Source: a virus
Length of the DNA stretch: 64,000 bases
Virus record (IMG/VR): IMGVR_UViG_3300026097_000805
Span: 1-64,000 of that record
Direction: 5' to 3' (one strand)
A model generated the notes under the pieces. That model searched no databases. It had not been told where the DNA came from and was given only the letters and a program-made list of their open reading frames with translations. Both the position numbers and the translations under genes were made by a program. Positions 8,604 through 21,706 of the stretch are shown in pieces (position 1 is the stretch's first letter; each line of letters begins with the position of its first letter).

Positions 8604-9820
8604 AGAATTTTACCTGGAAAGAATCTAAAGTAACACATATGCACATAGAGTTATCTAATTTTTGTAATGCAGCATGTCCGTTTTGTCCTAGGTATGTAGA
8701 TAGCACTGCAAGAGTTAGACCAGAGTTACAATTGAATTCTATAACACTAGAACAATTTAAAAAATGGTTTCCTTTAAATTTTATGAAAAGTGTAGAGCGT
8801 ATTTTATTTTGTGGAACACACGGCGATCCACTGATGGCAAAGGATGTTATAGAAATTATAGATTATATACAAACGTCATCACCAAAGTGTACCATACAAG
8901 TGAACACTAATGGAGGCATGCGATCTCCTGAATTTTTTAGAGCATTAGGAAAAAAATTAGTTGAGCATGGAACTAATCATAAAGTAGTTTTTAGTATAGA
9001 CGGGTTAAAAGATACAAATCATTTATACAGAAGAAATGTAAAGTGGGAAAAACTTATAGAAAACGCAATAGCTTTTAACAGTACCGGTGCTCGGGGTCTG
9101 TGGGAATATCTTATTTTTGAACACAACGAGCATCAATTAGAAGAAGCCAAACAATTATCAGAAGAATTAGGGTTTTATGATATAAAATTTAAAAAAGCAT
9201 TAGGTTTTGATCCTAATAAGTCAGGGCAATTAAAAGCTAGAGGAGTGTATGATAAAAATGGCGATCTAGAGTACATCATAAGTCCGCCTAGTGACCAGTC
9301 AATGATAAACTCGTCGTGTGTGCCAAACAGTGTAGATAAAAATGTTAAGACCTCAAAAGACATAACATACTTAAAAGACTTTAAACCCGGAGTAAATCCT
9401 ATTGTCGAAAGCAAAGTAGCTAATTTTGACGAGGCAAAAATACCACATTGGAACACTTATATTAAACAGTTTGAAAACAGTGCTATAAATTGTAAAAGCT
9501 GTGTTAAGTCAAAATCGTCAGAAATTTATGTAAGCTGTGACGGTATTGTATTTCCTTGTTGTTTTATAGGAACACGAGTTGATAGTGCAATAGATTTGTA
9601 CGAAGATACACAATTAAGACATCATATAAAACAGTTTGGTAAAGATAAATTTGATTTAAAAAAGACTTCTATTAAAAAAATTATAAAACGGGGCTATTTA
9701 GACAGTGTGTATACGGACAGTTGGGATAAAGAGTCATATACTAACGGTAAACTTTCTTATTGTGCAATGACCTGTGGAAATAATAGTGAGATAGATAGGA
9801 TTTACGATAGAGATGATTGA
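8600..9820 (+). CDS. radical SAM protein, C-terminal SPASM/Twitch (class B)
   Basis: HIELSNFCNAACPFC; CGTHGDP; FSIDGLKDTNHLYRR; C-terminal FPCC...CAMTCG. Confidence 0.9.
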   Translation: MKNFTWKESKVTHMHIELSNFCNAACPFCPRYVDSTARVRPELQLNSITLEQFKKWFPLNFMKSVERILFCGTHGDPLMAKDVIEIIDYIQTSSPKCTIQVNTNGGMRSPEFFRALGKKLVEHGTNHKVVFSIDGLKDTNHLYRRNVKWEKLIENAIAFNSTGARGLWEYLIFEHNEHQLEEAKQLSEELGFYDIKFKKALGFDPNKSGQLKARGVYDKNGDLEYIISPPSDQSMINSSCVPNSVDKNVKTSKDITYLKDFKPGVNPIVESKVANFDEAKIPHWNTYIKQFENSAINCKSCVKSKSSEIYVSCDGIVFPCCFIGTRVDSAIDLYEDTQLRHHIKQFGKDKFDLKKTSIKKIIKRGYLDSVYTDSWDKESYTNGKLSYCAMTCGNNSEIDRIYDRDD

Positions 9821-13647: not shown

Positions 13648-15273
13648 ATGTATGATATTGTTTTTATTGGTCCTAAGAACGACGAATGGATAAAACTTAA
13701 AAGTCGATTTATCACAGCAAAACATGCTGAATCGTTTGAACAGGCACGATCCATTGTTTTTACAAAAATGTTTTGGGTTATATGGCCCGACGTTGATGTT
13801 TGTGATAACTTTAAGTTTGATTATCGTGCAGATGAATGGAGTCAAGATTACATTCACACATTTTTAAACGGCGACACTCATGATGGCATAATACTTGTAC
13901 CTAAACGTGCTGAAATAGCAGAACGTGAATTACGTCATAGATTCTTTATAAACAAAAAAGAAGTAGACATAGTAGCAAGTACACCTAAGCCGTTTGACTT
14001 GTACTACGTAGACACCTGGGAAGACTACGAATATGCACTTGAGAACAGCTCAACAGAAATGTTTTGGGCAGTTTCGCATAATCTAAAATACAGCATGTCA
14101 TACATAAACAATTTTTATTTTAGTCACCACAATAGCTACGACAGAAAGGAAAATCATGCATTTGTACATGAAGTTAATGGAAAGAAATTATATAATGGAG
14201 TATTCCTGTGTTCGAGAAACAAGCCGCTAAACAAAAAAGAGATAGAATATAGATTTCTTGTAAATGCAAAACAGTGGAACGACGTAGTTAGCGGCCCAAG
14301 ACAGTATGACATATTTACAATAGATACATATGAAGATTATGAGTATGCATTAAAAAATAGTTCGACAGAAATGTTCTGGTTAGTACCTTCTCATGTACAA
14401 ACAAAAGATAATTTTAAGTTTGACTTGTATTTCAGCCACGATAACAAATACGATAGAAATATTAATCACGTATTCCTAAATGGCAAATATCATGACGGAA
14501 TTATCTTGTGCAGTAAAACAGCAGAAATATCTAAAAAAGAGTTTGATTACAAATTTTTAACTAATAAGAAAGAAGTAGATACAATTGCTAGTACGCCTAA
14601 ACCTTACGACATTGTATTCATTAGCTATAACGAGCCAAACGCAGATGCTAACTATGCTGCTTTACAACAGCATTTTCCAAGAGCAAAGCGTATACACGGA
14701 GTAAAAGGAATACACCAAGCACATATCGCCGCTGCCGAGCTCTGTGATACCGATATGTTTTGGATTGTAGATGGAGATGCGCAAATAGCAGATGGTTTTA
14801 ATTTTGATTTTCAATCTCCAACGTGGCAGAGAGATAATGTGTATGTGTGGAGAAGTATAAATCCAATCAACGACTTGGTGTATGGCTATGGTGGAATAAA
14901 ACTGTTTCCAAGAAAAGAAACTCTCAACATGGATACTTCAAAACCTGATATGACCACAAGTATCAGTTCAAAGTTTAATGCCATGCCACAAATATCAAAT
15001 ATAACAGCATTCAACACTGATCCATTTAACACTTGGAAAAGCGCATTTAGGGAATGTGCTAAATTAAGTAGTAAAGTAATTGACAGACAAAAGGAAGATG
15101 AAACAAATGCAAGACTCGAAACTTGGACAACCGTGGGACACGATAGAAACTTTGGTGAGTATGCGATACGAGGTGCTAGGGCTGGTATGGAGTTTGGCCT
15201 TTCTCAGCGGGATAATCTGGGGCTAATTAACGACTTTGATTGGCTAGAGGAGAAGTTTAATGAACAATATTGA
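13648..15273 (+). CDS. multi-repeat protein with C-terminal GT-A-like glycosyltransferase domain
   Basis: repeated EDYEYALxNSSTEMFW modules; C-terminal YDIVFISYNEPNA...FWIVDGD...WKSAFRECAKL homologous to 2539..3459. Confidence 0.65.
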   Translation: MYDIVFIGPKNDEWIKLKSRFITAKHAESFEQARSIVFTKMFWVIWPDVDVCDNFKFDYRADEWSQDYIHTFLNGDTHDGIILVPKRAEIAERELRHRFFINKKEVDIVASTPKPFDLYYVDTWEDYEYALENSSTEMFWAVSHNLKYSMSYINNFYFSHHNSYDRKENHAFVHEVNGKKLYNGVFLCSRNKPLNKKEIEYRFLVNAKQWNDVVSGPRQYDIFTIDTYEDYEYALKNSSTEMFWLVPSHVQTKDNFKFDLYFSHDNKYDRNINHVFLNGKYHDGIILCSKTAEISKKEFDYKFLTNKKEVDTIASTPKPYDIVFISYNEPNADANYAALQQHFPRAKRIHGVKGIHQAHIAAAELCDTDMFWIVDGDAQIADGFNFDFQSPTWQRDNVYVWRSINPINDLVYGYGGIKLFPRKETLNMDTSKPDMTTSISSKFNAMPQISNITAFNTDPFNTWKSAFRECAKLSSKVIDRQKEDETNARLETWTTVGHDRNFGEYAIRGARAGMEFGLSQRDNLGLINDFDWLEEKFNEQY

Positions 15274-15961
15274 ATGGCAAGACGATAAAGATATCTACGG
15301 CCGGCTGCTTATTTTAACTGGCAATCCGTTATTCAATAATTTACGCAATGCTGTAGATAACCATAATGCTGATTTATCCGATGCACTATCGTGGGGACAG
15401 CTCAAAAGCAAACGATGGATAATCGACGAATTGGAAAAATTAGATATTTCTTTGGGTACTGTTTATATATGTGCAGGGTGGTACGGTACACTTGCTGCTA
15501 TGCTGTTTAATAGTAAGTGCAATATAGAAAAAATAAGAAGTTTTGACATAGACAATAATTGTTTAGAAATAGCCGATTGTATTAATCGTCTACAAGTAAA
15601 AGACGGATGGAAATTTAAAGCAATTACACAGAATATACACGACATTGATTATAAAAAACATATTTGGCAAACATGGAGCAAAGCCAACAATAGATTGAGC
15701 TATCCTATTGAAGACATACCTGATACGATTATTAACACCAGCTGTGAACACATAGAAAATTTCGCAGAATGGTATGATAAAATTCCAGATGGCAAGTTAG
15801 TAATTCTACAAAGCAATAACTACTATGACATAGAGGATCATGTAAATTGTGTGGCAGGACCTCTAGAGTTTGCAGAACAGTCGCCCATGGCCCGGGTCCT
15901 ATATCAAGGTGCCCTAGAATTACCCAAATATACGAGGTTTATGAGAATTGGAAGAAAATAA
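15260..15961 (+). CDS. class I SAM-dependent methyltransferase
   Basis: YICAGWYG motif I; RSFDID acidic motif II; IINTSCEH. Confidence 0.7.
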   Translation: MNNIEWQDDKDIYGRLLILTGNPLFNNLRNAVDNHNADLSDALSWGQLKSKRWIIDELEKLDISLGTVYICAGWYGTLAAMLFNSKCNIEKIRSFDIDNNCLEIADCINRLQVKDGWKFKAITQNIHDIDYKKHIWQTWSKANNRLSYPIEDIPDTIINTSCEHIENFAEWYDKIPDGKLVILQSNNYYDIEDHVNCVAGPLEFAEQSPMARVLYQGALELPKYTRFMRIGRK

Positions 15962-17177
15962 AAAAGCTCCTATTTGTTTATTTCCGTTTTACGCATTATA
16001 TTATAGGGGAGACGATCAAAAAATAGGAAGTTGTTGTTTGCAAACCCCTTTGCCAAGCAAGATGAAAGGAGATGATATTTACACTTGGTTTACAAGTGAT
16101 GACGCAATCAAGATAAGACAACAATTTATGGACGGTGAATGGCCAGATAGTTGTAAAATTTGTATGAACGCGGAAAATTCTAACGTCAAAAGCTACAGAC
16201 AACGCTGGGAACATAATTTGTTTAAAGCAGGAGCATGCTATGATGATTTGGATGTAGAAAAAGGCAATAGTACAGGTCATGCTTTTTTTACAGATCTTAG
16301 ACCTGACAACTTTTGTAATTTAAGCTGTTCTATGTGTAATCCAGGGGCAAGTAGTAAAATTGAACAAATGGTAAAAGATCTAGATATAAGCGTGTGGGGT
16401 GACCCAGAACGCAAGCAAGAATTTACAGCTATCAATACACTCAAAACAGCTATTACTAAGCACACTAAAAGATTAAAACTTAATGGCGGCGAACCTACTA
16501 TAAATAACAAAATTAAAAGTCTATATCAGTACTCTATTGACAACGACTTTGCAAAAAATATTGAATTGCAGTTTACAACTAATTTTACTAATTATAATAA
16601 AACTTTTCAGATGCTTGATAATTTTAAAAGTGTAATTGTGACAGCTAGTTTAGATGGAACCAGAGACACATACAATTATATTCGAACCCCTGCTAAATGG
16701 AACACTACTAAAAAAAATATAATTAAATTCAAAGAACAAATGGATGCTAGACGTGATATATTTAATTTTGGTGTAAACACTGTATGGTATGTCGCCACAG
16801 CTTTTACGGTAGATGATTGGCTTCCTGAATTGTTGGATTTTTTCAATAAACATTTTCCTCATAAAGCAGGATCGAAAAATCAGTATATTCATGTAAACCA
16901 AGCACAGAATCCTATATGGCAAAATCTTTCTATTATTCCTCCCGAATACAGAGACGATATTTATGAAAACATAGAACGATATCGATCGCAAGATAGATAC
17001 GCACATCAACGAGAAAGATGTATGGATCAATTAATTTTTGGACTAGATAATTTCCAGTTCAATCCAGAAAATTTGCGCACTTGGCAAGAATTAAATCCTA
17101 AAATGGACGCTTATAAAAAAGTTGATATTACTACACTTCACCCTAGATTTAAAGACCTAATGAATTATAATGTATAA
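15948..17177 (+). CDS. radical SAM protein (class A), copy 1 of a tandem pair
   Basis: CNLSCSMC; NGGEP; TTG start; collinear with 17297..18499. Confidence 0.9.
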   Translation: MEENKKAPICLFPFYALYYRGDDQKIGSCCLQTPLPSKMKGDDIYTWFTSDDAIKIRQQFMDGEWPDSCKICMNAENSNVKSYRQRWEHNLFKAGACYDDLDVEKGNSTGHAFFTDLRPDNFCNLSCSMCNPGASSKIEQMVKDLDISVWGDPERKQEFTAINTLKTAITKHTKRLKLNGGEPTINNKIKSLYQYSIDNDFAKNIELQFTTNFTNYNKTFQMLDNFKSVIVTASLDGTRDTYNYIRTPAKWNTTKKNIIKFKEQMDARRDIFNFGVNTVWYVATAFTVDDWLPELLDFFNKHFPHKAGSKNQYIHVNQAQNPIWQNLSIIPPEYRDDIYENIERYRSQDRYAHQRERCMDQLIFGLDNFQFNPENLRTWQELNPKMDAYKKVDITTLHPRFKDLMNYNV

Positions 17178-17310
17178 ACTAGAAGAAGTTTTCGGCAAGA
17201 TGGGTGCTGTTATTTTCAGCGTTGACGGCCTACGGGACACTAATCATATATATCAAAGAGAGTTAAAATTATCCAAATACACGAGGTTTATGAGAATTGG
17301 AAGAAAATAA
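17170..17310 (+). pseudogene. 46-codon chimeric junction ORF (rearrangement scar)
   Basis: MYKLE (start of 18492 gene) + EVFGKMGAVIFSVDGLRDTNHIY (internal 18492 gene) + ...KYTRFMRIGRK (end of the 15260 methyltransferase); near-identical at DNA level to ~18828-18898 and ~15920-15961. Confidence 0.85.
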
Positions 17311-18499
17311 AAACAAATCGATAGTATGTCTGTTACCTTTCTATGCCATTTATTTTAGTGGTCGTCATGGAAAAATGGGCTCGTGTTGTCTACAAAAACC
17401 TCTTACATCTAGTTTAAAAAAAGACAGTATTGCTAGTTTTTGGAAAAGTGAAGAACAACAAAAGATACGAAAAATGTTTATAAAAGGAGAATGGCCTGAC
17501 AGTTGTTCTATATGTAAAAAACAAGAACAAAGCGGCGTACTTAGTTATAGACAACAGTGGAACGATAATTTTATGACTCGTATTGGAGCTACTGAAGAGG
17601 ATATCGATATAGAATACGGTAACCCGTATAAAGAACCTATATATTTAGATTATAGACCTGATAATATGTGTAATTTATCTTGTACTATGTGTAATCCTGA
17701 TAATGCTAATAAAATAGAAAAAATGGCCAAAGATTTAGATTTAAATCTATGGGATCTATCTGGCGAAGATGCTGATTATAATGCTGAAGAATTTATTAAA
17801 ACTATTTCAAAGAATACTCGACGCATAAAACTAAATGGTGGCGAACCTACAATAAGTAAAAAAATACATAAAATTTTTGATTATTTAATACATAAAGGTT
17901 ATTCAAAAAATATCGAATTACAATTTACTACAAATTTTACAAACTATAACAAAACATTCGAGTTATTAAAGGAATTTAAGACTGTAAGAGTATCTGCTAG
18001 TTTAGACGGTACAAGTGATACTTATGAATATATCAGAAGTCCTGCTAAATGGAAAAAAATTACAGAAAATATTTTAAAATTTGTACAAGACAGAAAACAT
18101 TTTGATAATCGATTTGCTGTTAATTCAGTATGGTTTAGTGCCACTGCGTTTACTATAAAAGACTGGGTACCAGAACTGCTAGATTTTATTGATGAGAATT
18201 TTGAAGAAAAAATCCTCATTCATATGAACCAGTGCCAAAAACCTGCTTGGCAGAATCTTAGTATTATTCCTAATGAATTTAGAAGTGAGATATATAAAGA
18301 TATTGAAGATCTAAAACTTAAATATCCTAAATATTTAAAAATGTTTCAAGCTATGAAATTTGGATTGGATAACTATGCGTTCAATAAGGATAATTTAAAA
18401 ATATGGCAGGACATAACTCCTAAAACAGATGCTTATAGAAAAACAGATATTACAAAGCTCCATCCGAGATTTAAAGACCTAATGGATTATAATGTATAA
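17297..18499 (+). CDS. radical SAM protein (class A), copy 2 of a tandem pair
   Basis: CNLSCTMC; NGGEP; same MEENK start and HPRFKDLM.YNV end as 15948..17177. Confidence 0.9.
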   Translation: MEENKNKSIVCLLPFYAIYFSGRHGKMGSCCLQKPLTSSLKKDSIASFWKSEEQQKIRKMFIKGEWPDSCSICKKQEQSGVLSYRQQWNDNFMTRIGATEEDIDIEYGNPYKEPIYLDYRPDNMCNLSCTMCNPDNANKIEKMAKDLDLNLWDLSGEDADYNAEEFIKTISKNTRRIKLNGGEPTISKKIHKIFDYLIHKGYSKNIELQFTTNFTNYNKTFELLKEFKTVRVSASLDGTSDTYEYIRSPAKWKKITENILKFVQDRKHFDNRFAVNSVWFSATAFTIKDWVPELLDFIDENFEEKILIHMNQCQKPAWQNLSIIPNEFRSEIYKDIEDLKLKYPKYLKMFQAMKFGLDNYAFNKDNLKIWQDITPKTDAYRKTDITKLHPRFKDLMDYNV

Positions 18500-19565
18500 A
18501 CTAGAAGATATAAAAACAATTCATTTAGAAATTACGCAAAATTGTCAGGCTAGCTGTCCTATGTGCGATAGGAACATGAATGGCGAAGGTGTCAATCCTC
18601 ATATCAACCTCGATGAACTTTCGCTAGACGATTGTAAACTGATATTTCCTCCGGAGTTTATCGCACAGTTGAAAACAATGTATATGTGTGGAAACCTAGG
18701 TGATCCTATTGTAGCACGAGATACATTAGAAATATTTCGATACTTTAGAGAACACAATCCAAGCATGTGGTTGAGCATGAACACAAACGCAGGAGCAAGA
18801 GATGAAGAATGGTGGAGAGAACTTGCAGAAGTTTTCGGCAAGATGGGTGCTGTTATTTTCAGCGTTGATGGCCTACGGGATACTAATCATATATATCGTC
18901 AAGGTGTGAACTGGGACAGAGTTGAAACATCTATGCGAGCATTTACCAGCGCCGGGGGTAGAGCTCGTTGGGATTTCCTAGTATTTGAACATAATCAGCA
19001 TCAAATAGAACAAGCAGAACGACTAGCCGATGAATGGGGCTTTGAAAAGTTTATTGCTAAAAAGACAGGAAGATTTGTCACGGCAAAAACAGATGCTAAA
19101 GAAAAACACCAAGCAAAAGATAGAAAGGGTAAGGAGACTACAGAACTTAAAAAACCCGATCTTAAATATCAAAACCGCGCTCTTACTAAACAAGATAAAC
19201 TTATTGAGAAGTATGGGTCTATGGATGCTTACTACGATGCTGCTCCTATCCGATGTAAAGTAAAAGAGGAAGGCAGTCTTTTTATAACAGCCGAAGGACT
19301 AGCATTACCTTGCTGTTGGACAGCTGGTCGTATGTATAAGTGGTGGCACAAGGATCCTCGTGTAGAACAAATATGGGACCATATAGGCGATAAATCTAGT
19401 ATTGATGCTAGGCAAGGATTAGATCAAGTATTTGCTACAGGTATTTTTGACAGTATAGAATCTAGTTGGAACATGTCAAATTGTAGTGAAGGAAAATTAA
19501 AAGTTTGTGCTACTAAATGCGGAACAGAATGGGACCCATTTAGCGAACAATTTACAAAGGAATAA
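18492..19565 (+). CDS. radical SAM protein (class B)
   Basis: HLEITQNCQASCPMC; CGNLGDP; FSVDGLRDTNH; LPCCW...CATKCG. Confidence 0.9.
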   Translation: MYKLEDIKTIHLEITQNCQASCPMCDRNMNGEGVNPHINLDELSLDDCKLIFPPEFIAQLKTMYMCGNLGDPIVARDTLEIFRYFREHNPSMWLSMNTNAGARDEEWWRELAEVFGKMGAVIFSVDGLRDTNHIYRQGVNWDRVETSMRAFTSAGGRARWDFLVFEHNQHQIEQAERLADEWGFEKFIAKKTGRFVTAKTDAKEKHQAKDRKGKETTELKKPDLKYQNRALTKQDKLIEKYGSMDAYYDAAPIRCKVKEEGSLFITAEGLALPCCWTAGRMYKWWHKDPRVEQIWDHIGDKSSIDARQGLDQVFATGIFDSIESSWNMSNCSEGKLKVCATKCGTEWDPFSEQFTKE

Positions 19566-19566
19566 C

Positions 19567-20139
19567 ATGGCTGAAACTTTTTATAAAATAAAAAACTTTC
19601 CAAAGGATATAAAACAAGAATTATGCGAAGCCTGGTCGGAAAATAAATGGCAAGAAATAAAAGAAGTGCTCACTAACAGGATGTGGCATTATTGTTTAAA
19701 TTATGATCATAAACTTTCTACATATTTTGAGGCAGAATGTTATATAGAATATTATGTTGTCAGTAGTGGATGTTCGAATAGGCCTCATTTAGATCGAGGT
19801 AGATTGTGTGCTATTAATGTTCCAATTGAAGTAGACTATGAAAATAGTTTTTTCTTTTGCGGAAAATATATGAGACTAGGATTATACAAAGAAGATGTAT
19901 TACAAACAACATCATATGGTCACAAAGCAAAATATAAAGGACGAAACGGATTTTATGTCTATCAAGATAAAATGTTTGAAACATATAATCTAGAAGATCC
20001 TGTTATATTTTCCACTAAAATACCGCACGGAGGAAACAACATTGCTGGCAAGACTCCTAGGGTAATAGCAAGTGTCGGATTTCCTAATGACACATACGAG
20101 CAAGTATTGAATAACTTACCTAACGAGTGGTTTGAATGA
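19567..20139 (+). CDS. 2OG-Fe(II) oxygenase-like (double-stranded beta-helix) protein
   Basis: HxD in RPHLDRG; distal His in IPHGG; RVIASV; ATG 19567 follows an AAGGA RBS. Confidence 0.55.
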   Translation: MAETFYKIKNFPKDIKQELCEAWSENKWQEIKEVLTNRMWHYCLNYDHKLSTYFEAECYIEYYVVSSGCSNRPHLDRGRLCAINVPIEVDYENSFFFCGKYMRLGLYKEDVLQTTSYGHKAKYKGRNGFYVYQDKMFETYNLEDPVIFSTKIPHGGNNIAGKTPRVIASVGFPNDTYEQVLNNLPNEWFE

Positions 20140-21137
20140 GTTTTTACAAATTACCGTTAAGCTATATTCATATTGAACTTACTACTAGATGTAATGCGGC
20201 ATGTCCAATGTGTCTTAGAAATATAAACGGAGACATGAAAAATCCATATTTGAAGTTAGATGACTTTGATATCAAATGGTTAGATAAAATAGATATTCCA
20301 GTTGGAAAAAAAGTACAGTTATGCGGTAATTATGGAGATCCAATAGTCTATCCCCATTTATTTGATTTTATTAAAGCATGGAAAGAAAAGTTTAACACTC
20401 CTATTACAATAATGACTAACGGGGGAGCAAGAAATACTGATTGGTGGAAAGAATTGGCTGAGATATTAGATAACAGGTGTAAGGTTGTATTTGGTATCGA
20501 CGGATTAGAAGATACCAACCATCTTTATCGTAGAAATGTAAAATGGAACAAACTAATGGAAAATGCTAAGGCTTTTATAGACGCTGGCGGCAGAGCATGG
20601 TGGAAGTTTATAGTTTTTAAACATAATCAACATCAAATAGAAGATGCTAAAATATTAGCCAAAAAAATGAAGTTCGAAAGTTTTGAAAAATTAAAAACTA
20701 ATAGATTTGATAGAGGAGTTTTGCCTGTACTGGATAAAAACGGAAACAATCTGTATAATATATATGAGCCAAATATTTCAAAAAAAGGATTTTTGGATAA
20801 AAACCCTTACAGAGCAGTAGCTAATAAAGACCCTGCTAGAGTAAAAATAGATTGCTATGCTAAAAAAGAATCTAGCATGTACATCGCAGCAGACGGCCGA
20901 GTGTATCCTTGCTGTAATACAGGATATCATTATAGTGGACCTAATCGAATAGAAATGGAAATAGCACAAGAAACACAAACTCCCTACAGTCTAACTAATA
21001 GCAAAGTATCAGAAATCATAAATGGCGATTTTTTTAGAGGATTTGAAAAAACTTGGACTTCTACTCCATATAAAAAATGTCACAGGGTATGTGGTTATAA
21101 AAGAGGAATTCTCCATAAAATAGAGGATCTTAAATAA
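20136..21137 (+). CDS. radical SAM protein (class B)
   Basis: HIELTTRCNAACPMC; CGNYGDP; FGIDGLEDTNHLYRR; YPCC...CHRVCG. Confidence 0.9.
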   Translation: MSFYKLPLSYIHIELTTRCNAACPMCLRNINGDMKNPYLKLDDFDIKWLDKIDIPVGKKVQLCGNYGDPIVYPHLFDFIKAWKEKFNTPITIMTNGGARNTDWWKELAEILDNRCKVVFGIDGLEDTNHLYRRNVKWNKLMENAKAFIDAGGRAWWKFIVFKHNQHQIEDAKILAKKMKFESFEKLKTNRFDRGVLPVLDKNGNNLYNIYEPNISKKGFLDKNPYRAVANKDPARVKIDCYAKKESSMYIAADGRVYPCCNTGYHYSGPNRIEMEIAQETQTPYSLTNSKVSEIINGDFFRGFEKTWTSTPYKKCHRVCGYKRGILHKIEDLK

Positions 21138-21706
21138 TGGAGACTTATTATAAATTAAATAATTTTCCAGAAAAAATTATTCAAGATATCAAGCAAAGCT
21201 GGATAGATAACGACTGGAAGATTATCATAGATACTTATAAAAGTCAATTTTTCCACTATCGTTTAGATAGATCAAAAAAGGTTTATGAACATTTTCCGGA
21301 ATGTGATAAAATAGAATTCTACGAACAAATACCCGGAGTAAAGAATAGACCTCATTCAGACCGAGGTAGATTTGCTGCTATAAATATACCTGTTGAAGTA
21401 GATTATGCGAATAGTTTTTTTTATATAGGAAAATATTTTGATTTGGCAGAATATTCAAGAGATTTTGGACCCAAAGTAGTTACGCAAGGTAACAAATCAA
21501 ATAAACTAGGACAACCTGTATTTTATAAATATGACGAAAAATTAATGGAAAAATATAATCTTAGAACACCTGTAATTTTTGATACAAAAGTACCCCACGG
21601 AGGCGTAAATACTGATTGTCCAACACGAAGAATTATTGCTAGCATAAGCTATCAGCAATATACATACGAACAAGTCCTTGGTATGATATCACCAGAGTGG
21701 TTCTAA
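21137..21706 (+). CDS. 2OG-Fe(II) oxygenase-like protein, paralog of 19567..20139
   Basis: RPHSDRGRFAAINIPVEVDY; VPHGG; RRIIASI. Confidence 0.55.
   Translation: METYYKLNNFPEKIIQDIKQSWIDNDWKIIIDTYKSQFFHYRLDRSKKVYEHFPECDKIEFYEQIPGVKNRPHSDRGRFAAINIPVEVDYANSFFYIGKYFDLAEYSRDFGPKVVTQGNKSNKLGQPVFYKYDEKLMEKYNLRTPVIFDTKVPHGGVNTDCPTRRIIASISYQQYTYEQVLGMISPEWF

Follow-up and report, generated by a model that had tools for sequence, protein, structure and literature searches.

Organization of the MTase-rS3 locus

We analyzed a 64,000-nt stretch of DNA (the window), the first 64 kb of the 179,647-bp IMG/VR virus record IMGVR_UViG_3300026097_000805, whose source is an uncultured marine jumbo phage and whose completeness is estimated by CheckV at about 50%. 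The element in question is a 46-codon open reading frame (ORF), here called the mini-ORF, between two genes for radical S-adenosylmethionine (SAM) enzymes. It is part of a long plus-strand operon (about 0.3 to 41.7 kb of the window), in which radical SAM genes are abundant and neighbors overlap by 1-38 nt at nearly every gene of the island. The gene order is a 541-aa protein, a 233-aa gene with a methyltransferase fold (MTase), the radical SAM gene rS1, the mini-ORF, the radical SAM genes rS2 and rS3, and more paralogous cassettes (Table 1). The locus has no match in a public phage collection searched in near and distant DNA modes, records of its own genome being set aside, and a Pfam search for gp23 in the 180-kb, 50%-complete record gave no match either, its controls being equally silent.

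Table 1. Genes and scar pieces of the MTase-rS3 locus, in window coordinates.
Feature	Position	Strand	Basis
MTase-fold gene, 233 aa	15260..15961	+	ORF; AlphaFold fold match
rS1, radical SAM, 409 aa, TTG start	15948..17177	+	PF04055, CNLSCSMC
Chimeric mini-ORF, 46 codons + TAA	17170..17310	+	Three-part match; read-derived unitigs across
Scar piece A, copy of rS3 start	17170..17186	+	17/17 vs 18492-18508
Scar piece B, internal copy of rS3 (E113-Y135)	17184..17254	+	69/71 vs 18827-18897
Scar piece C, copy of MTase tail	17249..17310	+	54/62 vs 15900-15961
rS2, radical SAM, 400 aa, TTG start	17297..18499	+	PF04055, CNLSCTMC
rS3, MYKLE radical SAM, 357 aa	18492..19565	+	PF04055, CQASCPMC

The mini-ORF is a recombination scar, a chimeric remnant of three neighboring gene pieces. 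This is the three-source composition (start of rS3, interior of rS3, 3' end of the MTase gene) that an earlier note on this DNA had read from it. Piece A repeats the first 17 nt of rS3 without a mismatch. From -41 to +17, the start of the mini-ORF has the same context as the start of rS3 apart from a single nucleotide, so that if rS3 is translated, the same very likely holds for the mini-ORF. Piece B corresponds to nt 336-406 of rS3 and differs from it by two third-position C/T changes in Asp codons, both synonymous; a BLAST search inside the record finds this rS3 piece as a 78-nt stretch (E=5e-30). Piece C copies the last 62 nt of the MTase gene (a 65-nt BLAST match, E=8.5e-18), with mismatches that are unevenly spread: the proximal part is identical at 13/20 positions (7 differ) and the distal part at 35/36 (1 differs). 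The latter piece includes a GAGG (17283-17286), the TTG at which rS2 starts (17297) and the TAA stop of the mini-ORF (17308-17310); in the MTase gene itself, the GAGG lies at 15934-15937 and the TTG that opens the next gene at 15948.

Both joints fall on microhomologies of a few nucleotides instead of long repeats, one of them inside rS3 and the other inside the MTase tail. Pieces A and B meet at a 3-nt AGA (17184-17186) within an imperfect 8/10 repeat, which yields the observed AGAAGAAG. The microhomology that the earlier note had placed here, AGAAG, does occur in both sources, but the actual joint is the shorter AGA. Pieces B and C meet at a second joint, which that note did not describe: a 6-nt TATATC (17249-17254), past which a further imperfect similarity extends (TATATC(GT)CAAGGTG vs TATATCAAGG). 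Compared with rS3, 321 nt (18509-18829, 107 codons) are gone from the scar, among them the CQASCPMC cluster motif. The duplicated rS3 piece also contains, in both copies (17193-17217 and 18836-18860), a weak terminator-like hairpin (CGGCA-loop-TGCTG, then TTATTTTC). It is probably a chance occurrence, as such sites are not above shuffles regionally, but it could be a pause site relevant to template switching.

rS1, rS2 and rS3 all match PF04055 (E=5e-7, 4e-10 and 1e-7, respectively), each with a CxxxCxxC motif, and on sequence grounds they are members of the radical SAM superfamily. The 233-aa gene gave no match in Pfam, PHROG and PDB sequence searches. Its AlphaFold model, built on an 18-sequence alignment, has a predicted local distance difference test score of 84.8. 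When the model was compared with the PDB using Foldseek, the top 40+ matches were all class I SAM methyltransferases (E of about 1e-7 to 1e-6, template modeling score of about 0.5). A72-G73-W74, at the position where motif I would be, is invariant in 18 homologs. The predicted structure thus makes gene 15260 a class I SAM methyltransferase at the fold level, and the label 'methyltransferase' that it had been given earlier holds at this level.

Read support for the joints

Logan unitigs, which are built directly from reads (31-mers), were used to examine the joints; run X1, which has 94% of the sampled words of the window, is probably its source. Three X1 unitigs (15935-17213, 17200-17310 and 17284-18731) match the window with 0 differences at depths of 62.1, 54.9 and 58.9, and the flanks, at 60.5 (MTase) and 60-61 (rS3), are equal in depth to both cassettes and the scar. 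The 31-mers across both joints occur at about 55-62x and those unique to the scar at about 55x; at the first joint the unitig reaches only 27 nt to the right, the 31-mers across it being implied. ENA contig L100 (94,921 nt) is 100% identical over 13,203 nt. L100 and X1 may both derive from the source sample, so that L100 represents a second assembler, not a second sample. X1 is labeled 'soil metagenome', while the other holders of these sequences and the relatives come from marine, plankton or saltern samples; this may just be an oddity of how the run was filed.

An assembler, or chimeric reads, might have joined two co-occurring strains, one with rS1 and the other with rS2 in this slot. Repeats of 27-42 nt do exist in the flanks, and closely related strains do co-occur in such samples (X2 holds several variants). 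However, the joints are not assembler-made, since a sharing of 3 and 6 nt is beyond any k-mer (de Bruijn) graph; 31-mers unique to the scar are present at about 55x; and an identical sequence is present in a MEGAHIT-style contig. Mixed strains with alternative cassettes are excluded because the flanks in X1 do not have the summed depth of the cassettes. With unitigs crossing both joints at flank-like depth, the assembly chimera against which the earlier note had advised a read-level check is not borne out, and we regard an artefact as extremely improbable.

A hypervariable slot between conserved anchors

Relatives of rS3 occur in 469 stretches in IMG/VR, the best 80 having 73-81% protein identity. 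About 64 distinct contexts share the order 541-aa C-terminal domain, MTase, variable gap and rS3, the gap ranging from -1 to 4682 nt and containing 0 to 3 genes. The slot is thus hypervariable between the conserved anchors MTase and rS3; the earlier note had proposed looking in relatives for 0, 1, 2 or more cassettes between the MTase and the MYKLE radical SAM gene, and the states with 0, 1, 2 and 3 genes bear out this part of its reading. The MTase abuts rS3 in L011, L013, L076 and L052, while the commonest state is a single small gene of about 70 aa (gap of 203 nt). One gene of the family to which rS1 and rS2 belong is found in L098, in L104 and, together with a small gene, in L105; this family gene is accompanied by a 301-aa radical SAM gene in L095/96 and L097, and in L103 a small gene, a family gene and a 301-aa radical SAM gene are all present. 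Other content occurs as well, e.g., a UDP-glucose-dehydrogenase-like gene. Each of the seven other contexts with the rS1/rS2 family (L095-L098, L103-L105) has exactly one such gene, and among the contexts compared the tandem pair is found in the window phage only. The scar mini-ORF occurs in 0/63 other distinct contexts, which rules out the spacer as an ancient fixed small gene, the finding that the earlier note had named as fatal to its reading.

The junctions of the slot are built alike in the relatives. The MTase tail is conserved in the 64 related contexts (...KYTRFMRIGxK and stop), and 10 nt after its GAGG a TTG starts whichever gene follows. At the other end, ATGTATAA/ATGTATAG (RTGTATAA) at the start of rS3 supplies the stop of the preceding gene. 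The first codons of a cassette follow its upstream neighbor: genes of the rS1/rS2 family begin with MEENK after the MTase and with MNKK after the small gene, and the 301-aa family begins with MYN after an rS gene and with MKS, MHS or MNS after the small gene.

The phage L095 is almost identical to the window phage in the flanks. When window 15260-17200 and L095:5313-7225 are compared, DNA identity is 98% in the MTase, about 63% in the cassette and 95% in the last 60 nt of the cassette, with 92% in rS3; the proteins are 97% (MTase) and 63% (cassette) identical. This fall and return from 98% through about 63% to 95% indicates that divergent cassettes were recently exchanged between almost identical flanks.

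Two other kinds of slot gene deserve mention. A small gene of 70-89 aa is present in most relatives (L016, L028, L045, L057:9739-10008, L103:284-505 and many others), with a TTG start in the MTase tail, a conserved C-terminus reading ...GPGKD(I/V)KLV... and a stop that falls where the following gene begins. Pfam gives no match for this small gene, nor does the 180-kb record of the window phage; its product might act with the radical SAM enzymes as a partner or serve them as a substrate. A radical SAM family of 301-313 aa with a C-terminal SPASM domain also fills the slot (L095:7196-8101, L027, L037, L044, L069 and others), sometimes twice in tandem (L027, L037), and its first two to three codons vary with the upstream neighbor (MYN, MKS, MHS, MNS, MKK).

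Divergence of the two cassettes

rS1 and rS2 share 53-55% protein identity and about 65% DNA identity. Their ends are far more alike, as the earlier note had pointed out: 41 nt before and into the start have 1 mismatch, and so have the last 41 nt (40/41). Both genes overlap their upstream neighbor by the same 14 nt (TTGGAAGAAAATAA) and their downstream neighbor by the same 8 nt (ATGTATAA); rS1 thus shares 14 nt with the MTase gene and 8 nt with the mini-ORF, and the 8-nt overlap of rS2 is with rS3. Among 5.8 billion proteins, no more than about a dozen members of the family were found. The family tree is star-like, with identities between members of 51-81%; rS2 is the most divergent member (51-57% to every other one), while rS1 has 58-63%, and the divergence between the two is that seen between family members of different phages. 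No close relatives of rS1 or rS2 were found in IMG/VR, searched with each protein and with their alignment, or in JGI metagenome contigs, and the exact scar 24-mer is absent from IMG/VR and JGI contigs.

Copies of rS2 are present in three other studies (X2, X4 and X3, with 98%, 97.6% and 100% identity, respectively), P0053 has 96% protein identity to rS2, and a copy of rS1 with 93% identity is found in another sample (L102). The variants of rS1 in other samples are mostly synonymous (27 amino-acid vs 85 nt changes), whereas about half of those of rS2 alter the protein (15 amino-acid vs 29 nt changes). Judging from these patterns, both cassettes look functional. As to copy-number variation within a population, depth is uniform in X1. 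X3 has one weak joint from the end of rS1 to rS3 (17177 to 18493), which extends 25 nt on one side and was not used as evidence for a single-cassette strain.

A second scar and the retained MTase tail

The duplicated MTase tail occurs in 2/64 distinct contexts, the window and L057. In the latter (L057:8108-10008), an MTase-fold gene is followed by a gene of 232 aa (8950-9648) without a Pfam match, a 35-codon ORF (9645-9752), the TTG-start small gene and rS3. The 35-codon ORF copies the last 100 nt of the MTase in frame with 89% identity; it overlaps the inserted gene upstream by an ATGA and the gene downstream by the usual 14-nt TTG overlap. The TTG is intact only in the tail copy that precedes the TTG-start gene and has drifted to ATC in the true MTase. 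The L057 scar is independent of that in the window. It supports the retention of a tail copy for the translation of the next gene. In the window, the near-constancy of the distal MTase tail would be due to its carrying the Shine-Dalgarno GAGG and the TTG that rS2 needs; the rest of the mini-ORF probably just carries ribosomes from the stop of rS1 to the start of rS2.

The earlier note had proposed that the spacer was kept in frame to preserve translational coupling. It is indeed in frame, and selection for coupling, or for the reading frame, in an operon built of overlaps is plausible from the gene arrangement, but the statistical case is weak. Among the nine phase combinations of the two joints, one yields the fully native frame, and four (4/9) end at or past the rS2 start; of the remainder, two stop 30 nt before this start and three about 70 nt before it. 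Any selection on the frame is our interpretation of this arrangement.

Proposed course of the recombination and alternative explanations

We consider it likely that the scar records a recombination that added a second, divergent radical SAM cassette, rS2, to the hypervariable slot between MTase and rS3. The anatomy of the mini-ORF, its joints, their read support, its absence from relatives and the divergence pattern are seen directly; from them we infer the identity of the donor and the order of events as follows. Relatives would normally swap alternative slot cassettes by homologous recombination in the flanks, with crossovers in the MTase and in the cassette end or rS3, such that rS1 would be replaced. 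Here, a strand copied from, or part of, an MTase-rS1-rS3 genome would have left rS3 at nt 406, joined the MTase tail of another phage at the 6-nt TATATC and continued through that phage's rS2. Homology at the 3' end of the cassette, or at the start of rS3, would have brought it back into the resident genome; we place the right-hand anchor there from the 40/41 identity of the cassette 3' ends and the 95% block shared with L095. The outcome would be an addition, not a replacement: rS1, the stranded 5' piece of rS3 fused to the donor tail, rS2 and rS3. Such an event would be an illegitimate recombination or a template switch in which the cassette was carried along with the ribosome site in its MTase tail. 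The 321 nt with the CxxxCxxC motif may have been lost from the stranded rS3 fragment at the AGA microhomology, either because the template switched once more during that event or through a deletion that came later. Of the earlier proposal that a unit of MTase end, radical SAM gene and next gene start was duplicated or recombined in, the arrival of such a unit beside an existing cassette is retained, whereas a recent duplication in place conflicts with the divergence of rS1 and rS2 set against the 97% identity of the rS3 piece. Likewise, the junctions are conserved across relatives, as homology-guided stacking would have it, but the new joints are illegitimate (3 and 6 nt) and lie off the junction homology.

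The origin of the tail can be approached through the uneven divergence of the scar from its resident sources, which is 2/71 in piece B, 7/20 in proximal C and 1/36 in distal C (Fisher tests, p=2e-4 with B entered as 2/72, and p=2e-3). The four true MTases of the subclade encode YQGALELPKY and the scar encodes YQRELKLSKY; ELKL(P)KY is a natural allele of more distant MTase relatives. The piece C peptide, YQRELKLSKYTRFMRIGRK, is like such other natural alleles (GELKLPKY) and unlike the resident GALELPKY, so that the scar tail resembles a foreign allele. The nearest rS3 alleles to piece B are those of the window and of L095, with 2 differences each, the next having at least 8. The uneven scar divergence, the divergence of rS1 and rS2, the single-copy relatives and the exchange with L095, taken together, argue for import, and we favor a tail and rS2 derived from another phage's slot and an rS3 piece that would have been copied recently from the rS3 of the resident or of a sibling. 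An in-place tandem duplication could instead have copied the MTase tail, the radical SAM gene and the 5' part of rS3 by unequal crossing-over at TATATC, after which the radical SAM copies diverged while gene conversion or selection held the ends and the scar alike. The direct repeats of MTase tail, cassette ends and rS3 start fit a single-lineage unequal crossover, and piece B is closest to the resident rS3. However, rS1 and rS2 have diverged (55% aa, about 65% nt) like members from different phages next to a piece B at 97%; decay at an even pace could not have produced 2/71 next to 7/20 and about 35%; the seven other family contexts are all single-copy, so that many losses would be needed; and the arrangement is absent in L095 despite its 98% identical MTase. 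Duplication in place is therefore, in our judgment, quite unlikely.

Several points weigh against the addition of rS2 by import. The foreign-allele reading of the scar tail rests on 20 nt, and the difference could be decay instead, under relaxed constraint and AT bias; the 97% identity of piece B could come from gene conversion with rS3, not from recency. No donor with MTase-rS2-rS3 was found in IMG/VR, in JGI contigs or by protein search. The X2, X3 and X4 unitigs break at 17284, in a 27-nt repeat, so that what precedes rS2 is not readable there, and the low cover of 17214-17283 in these runs is no evidence of absence. One event and two events fit the scar equally. Finally, the chance of frame retention is 1/9 to 4/9 in the window and 1/3 in L057, jointly about 0.04-0.15, which makes the shared frame weak evidence.

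The mini-ORF might also be a gene kept for its peptide, as the substrate or precursor of the adjacent SPASM-type radical SAM enzyme or as a regulator of rS2. In loci for ribosomally synthesized and post-translationally modified peptides (RiPPs), a small ORF usually stands immediately before the gene for a radical SAM maturase. The start context identical in kind to that of rS3 makes translation very probable, both differences from rS3 are synonymous, and L057 keeps a comparable in-frame mini-ORF. Against this, two synonymous changes are statistically meaningless, the peptide is pieced together from interior parts of two folded enzymes, and the MTase tail is all that the L057 mini-ORF has in common with it, an indication that the ribosome site, not the peptide, is conserved. 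When a RiPP-precursor ORF was looked for, no homolog of the mini-ORF was found outside the window record, and the other members of the rS1/rS2 family have no such upstream ORF. We judge a peptide gene to be improbable, and prefer to see in the mini-ORF the scar of an added cassette.

Other rearrangements in the region

The 541-aa protein (window 13648-15273), which has no Pfam or PHROG match, contains internal repeats (14009-14072 and 14321-14384, 73%), and in relatives its C-terminal domain is matched by two separate genes, often with a radical SAM gene in between; this region looks like another shuffling site. Downstream, 18492-21706 contains an older tandem pair of two-gene cassettes, rS3 with a 190-aa gene and rS4 (20136-21137) with a 189-aa gene, in which 19776-19869 and 21343-21436 are 80% identical. 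The family of the 190-aa gene has no Pfam match, and in L098 the small partner gene occurs twice in tandem without a second radical SAM gene.

Relation to known modes of phage genome mosaicism

According to the Hendrix/Hatfull model, illegitimate recombination generates phage mosaics, among which selection then retains those with joints at gene boundaries. Our case resembles it in that combinations arise at microhomologies regardless of gene borders, while the surviving joints of the relatives lie mostly exactly at boundaries; the scars in the window and in L057 correspond to rare unpolished intermediates. It differs in that the boundary here is a coding overlap, with the ribosome site and start of the next gene inside the tail of the previous one. 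As these are embedded there, a surviving insertion must carry a copy of the MTase tail. The model is discussed in PMC2327257.

The slot also recalls the hyperplastic regions of T4-type phages, in which modules are shuffled by promoter early stem-loop elements (PeSLs) (Arbiol et al., 2010, PMC2839356; PMC4122927): close relatives differ by insertion, deletion or replacement of non-essential cassettes between conserved genes, with short repeated motifs at the flanks. PeSLs, however, are intergenic units of a promoter and a stem-loop terminator, whereas the slot of the window has no intergenic space but overlaps of 8-14 nt; its repeated motifs are overlapping stop and start codons in coding sequence, and the new joints lie elsewhere. 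Promoter-like sites number 36 (41 +/- 7.7 in shuffles) and terminator-like sites 6 (4 +/- 2.3), and PeSL-type shuffling is ruled out by the gene overlaps and by these counts, which are not above shuffles. Our case also agrees with what gene maps have shown for pelagimyophages, a group of marine myophages, where the presence of extra radical SAM cassettes distinguishes one host-recognition island from another (PMC7029224). The description given there stays at the gene-map level, whereas here the joints of one addition are base-resolved.

If the right-hand end was anchored by homology as proposed, its combination with a microhomology joint of a few bases at the other end would match homology-facilitated illegitimate recombination. 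The short stretch of 72 nt templated by rS3, with a microhomology joint on each side, is shared with microhomology-mediated break-induced replication and fork stalling and template switching (MMBIR/FoSTeS). The first of these is known from bacterial transformation and the template switching of the second from eukaryotic rearrangements, while our case is defined by the DNA alone, which does not indicate the enzymes. In the gene accordions of poxviruses, near-identical copies are amplified, with fast expansion and contraction. The number of related genes at one locus varies among close relatives here too, but the copies in the window are 55% identical and would come from separate lineages. Accordion-type amplification, which the earlier note had suggested, does not fit the divergence of the copies (55% protein, about 65% DNA identity) or the star-like family tree.

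The process is thus the known phage mosaicism with selection for workable gene borders, with no new mechanism. We considered a broader view, in which the overlapping stop/start junctions (GAGG and TTG in the MTase tail, the ATGNATAR/RTGTATAA overlaps and AATAAA at the cassette start) are portable coding linkers, so that any cassette carrying them could be added, however many times, without breaking the translational coupling of the operon. We think this unlikely. If true, the 22-gene radical SAM array would have been built in an integron-like manner without a recombinase, and selection would maintain mini-ORFs like 17170-17310 as bridges for ribosomes, from which new peptides might also arise.

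The value of the locus lies in its being a clean, base-resolved example, since unpolished intermediates of cassette gain with both joints resolved are rarely seen. In a tightly coupled operon, an added gene would bring along the tail of its former upstream neighbor, as that tail holds its ribosome site, and addition and replacement of cassettes would be two outcomes of one exchange between related phages. The large radical SAM island of these marine jumbo phages would grow by the import of diverged alleles, not by local duplication, and it offers a concrete case for asking whether translational coupling limits which recombinants survive.

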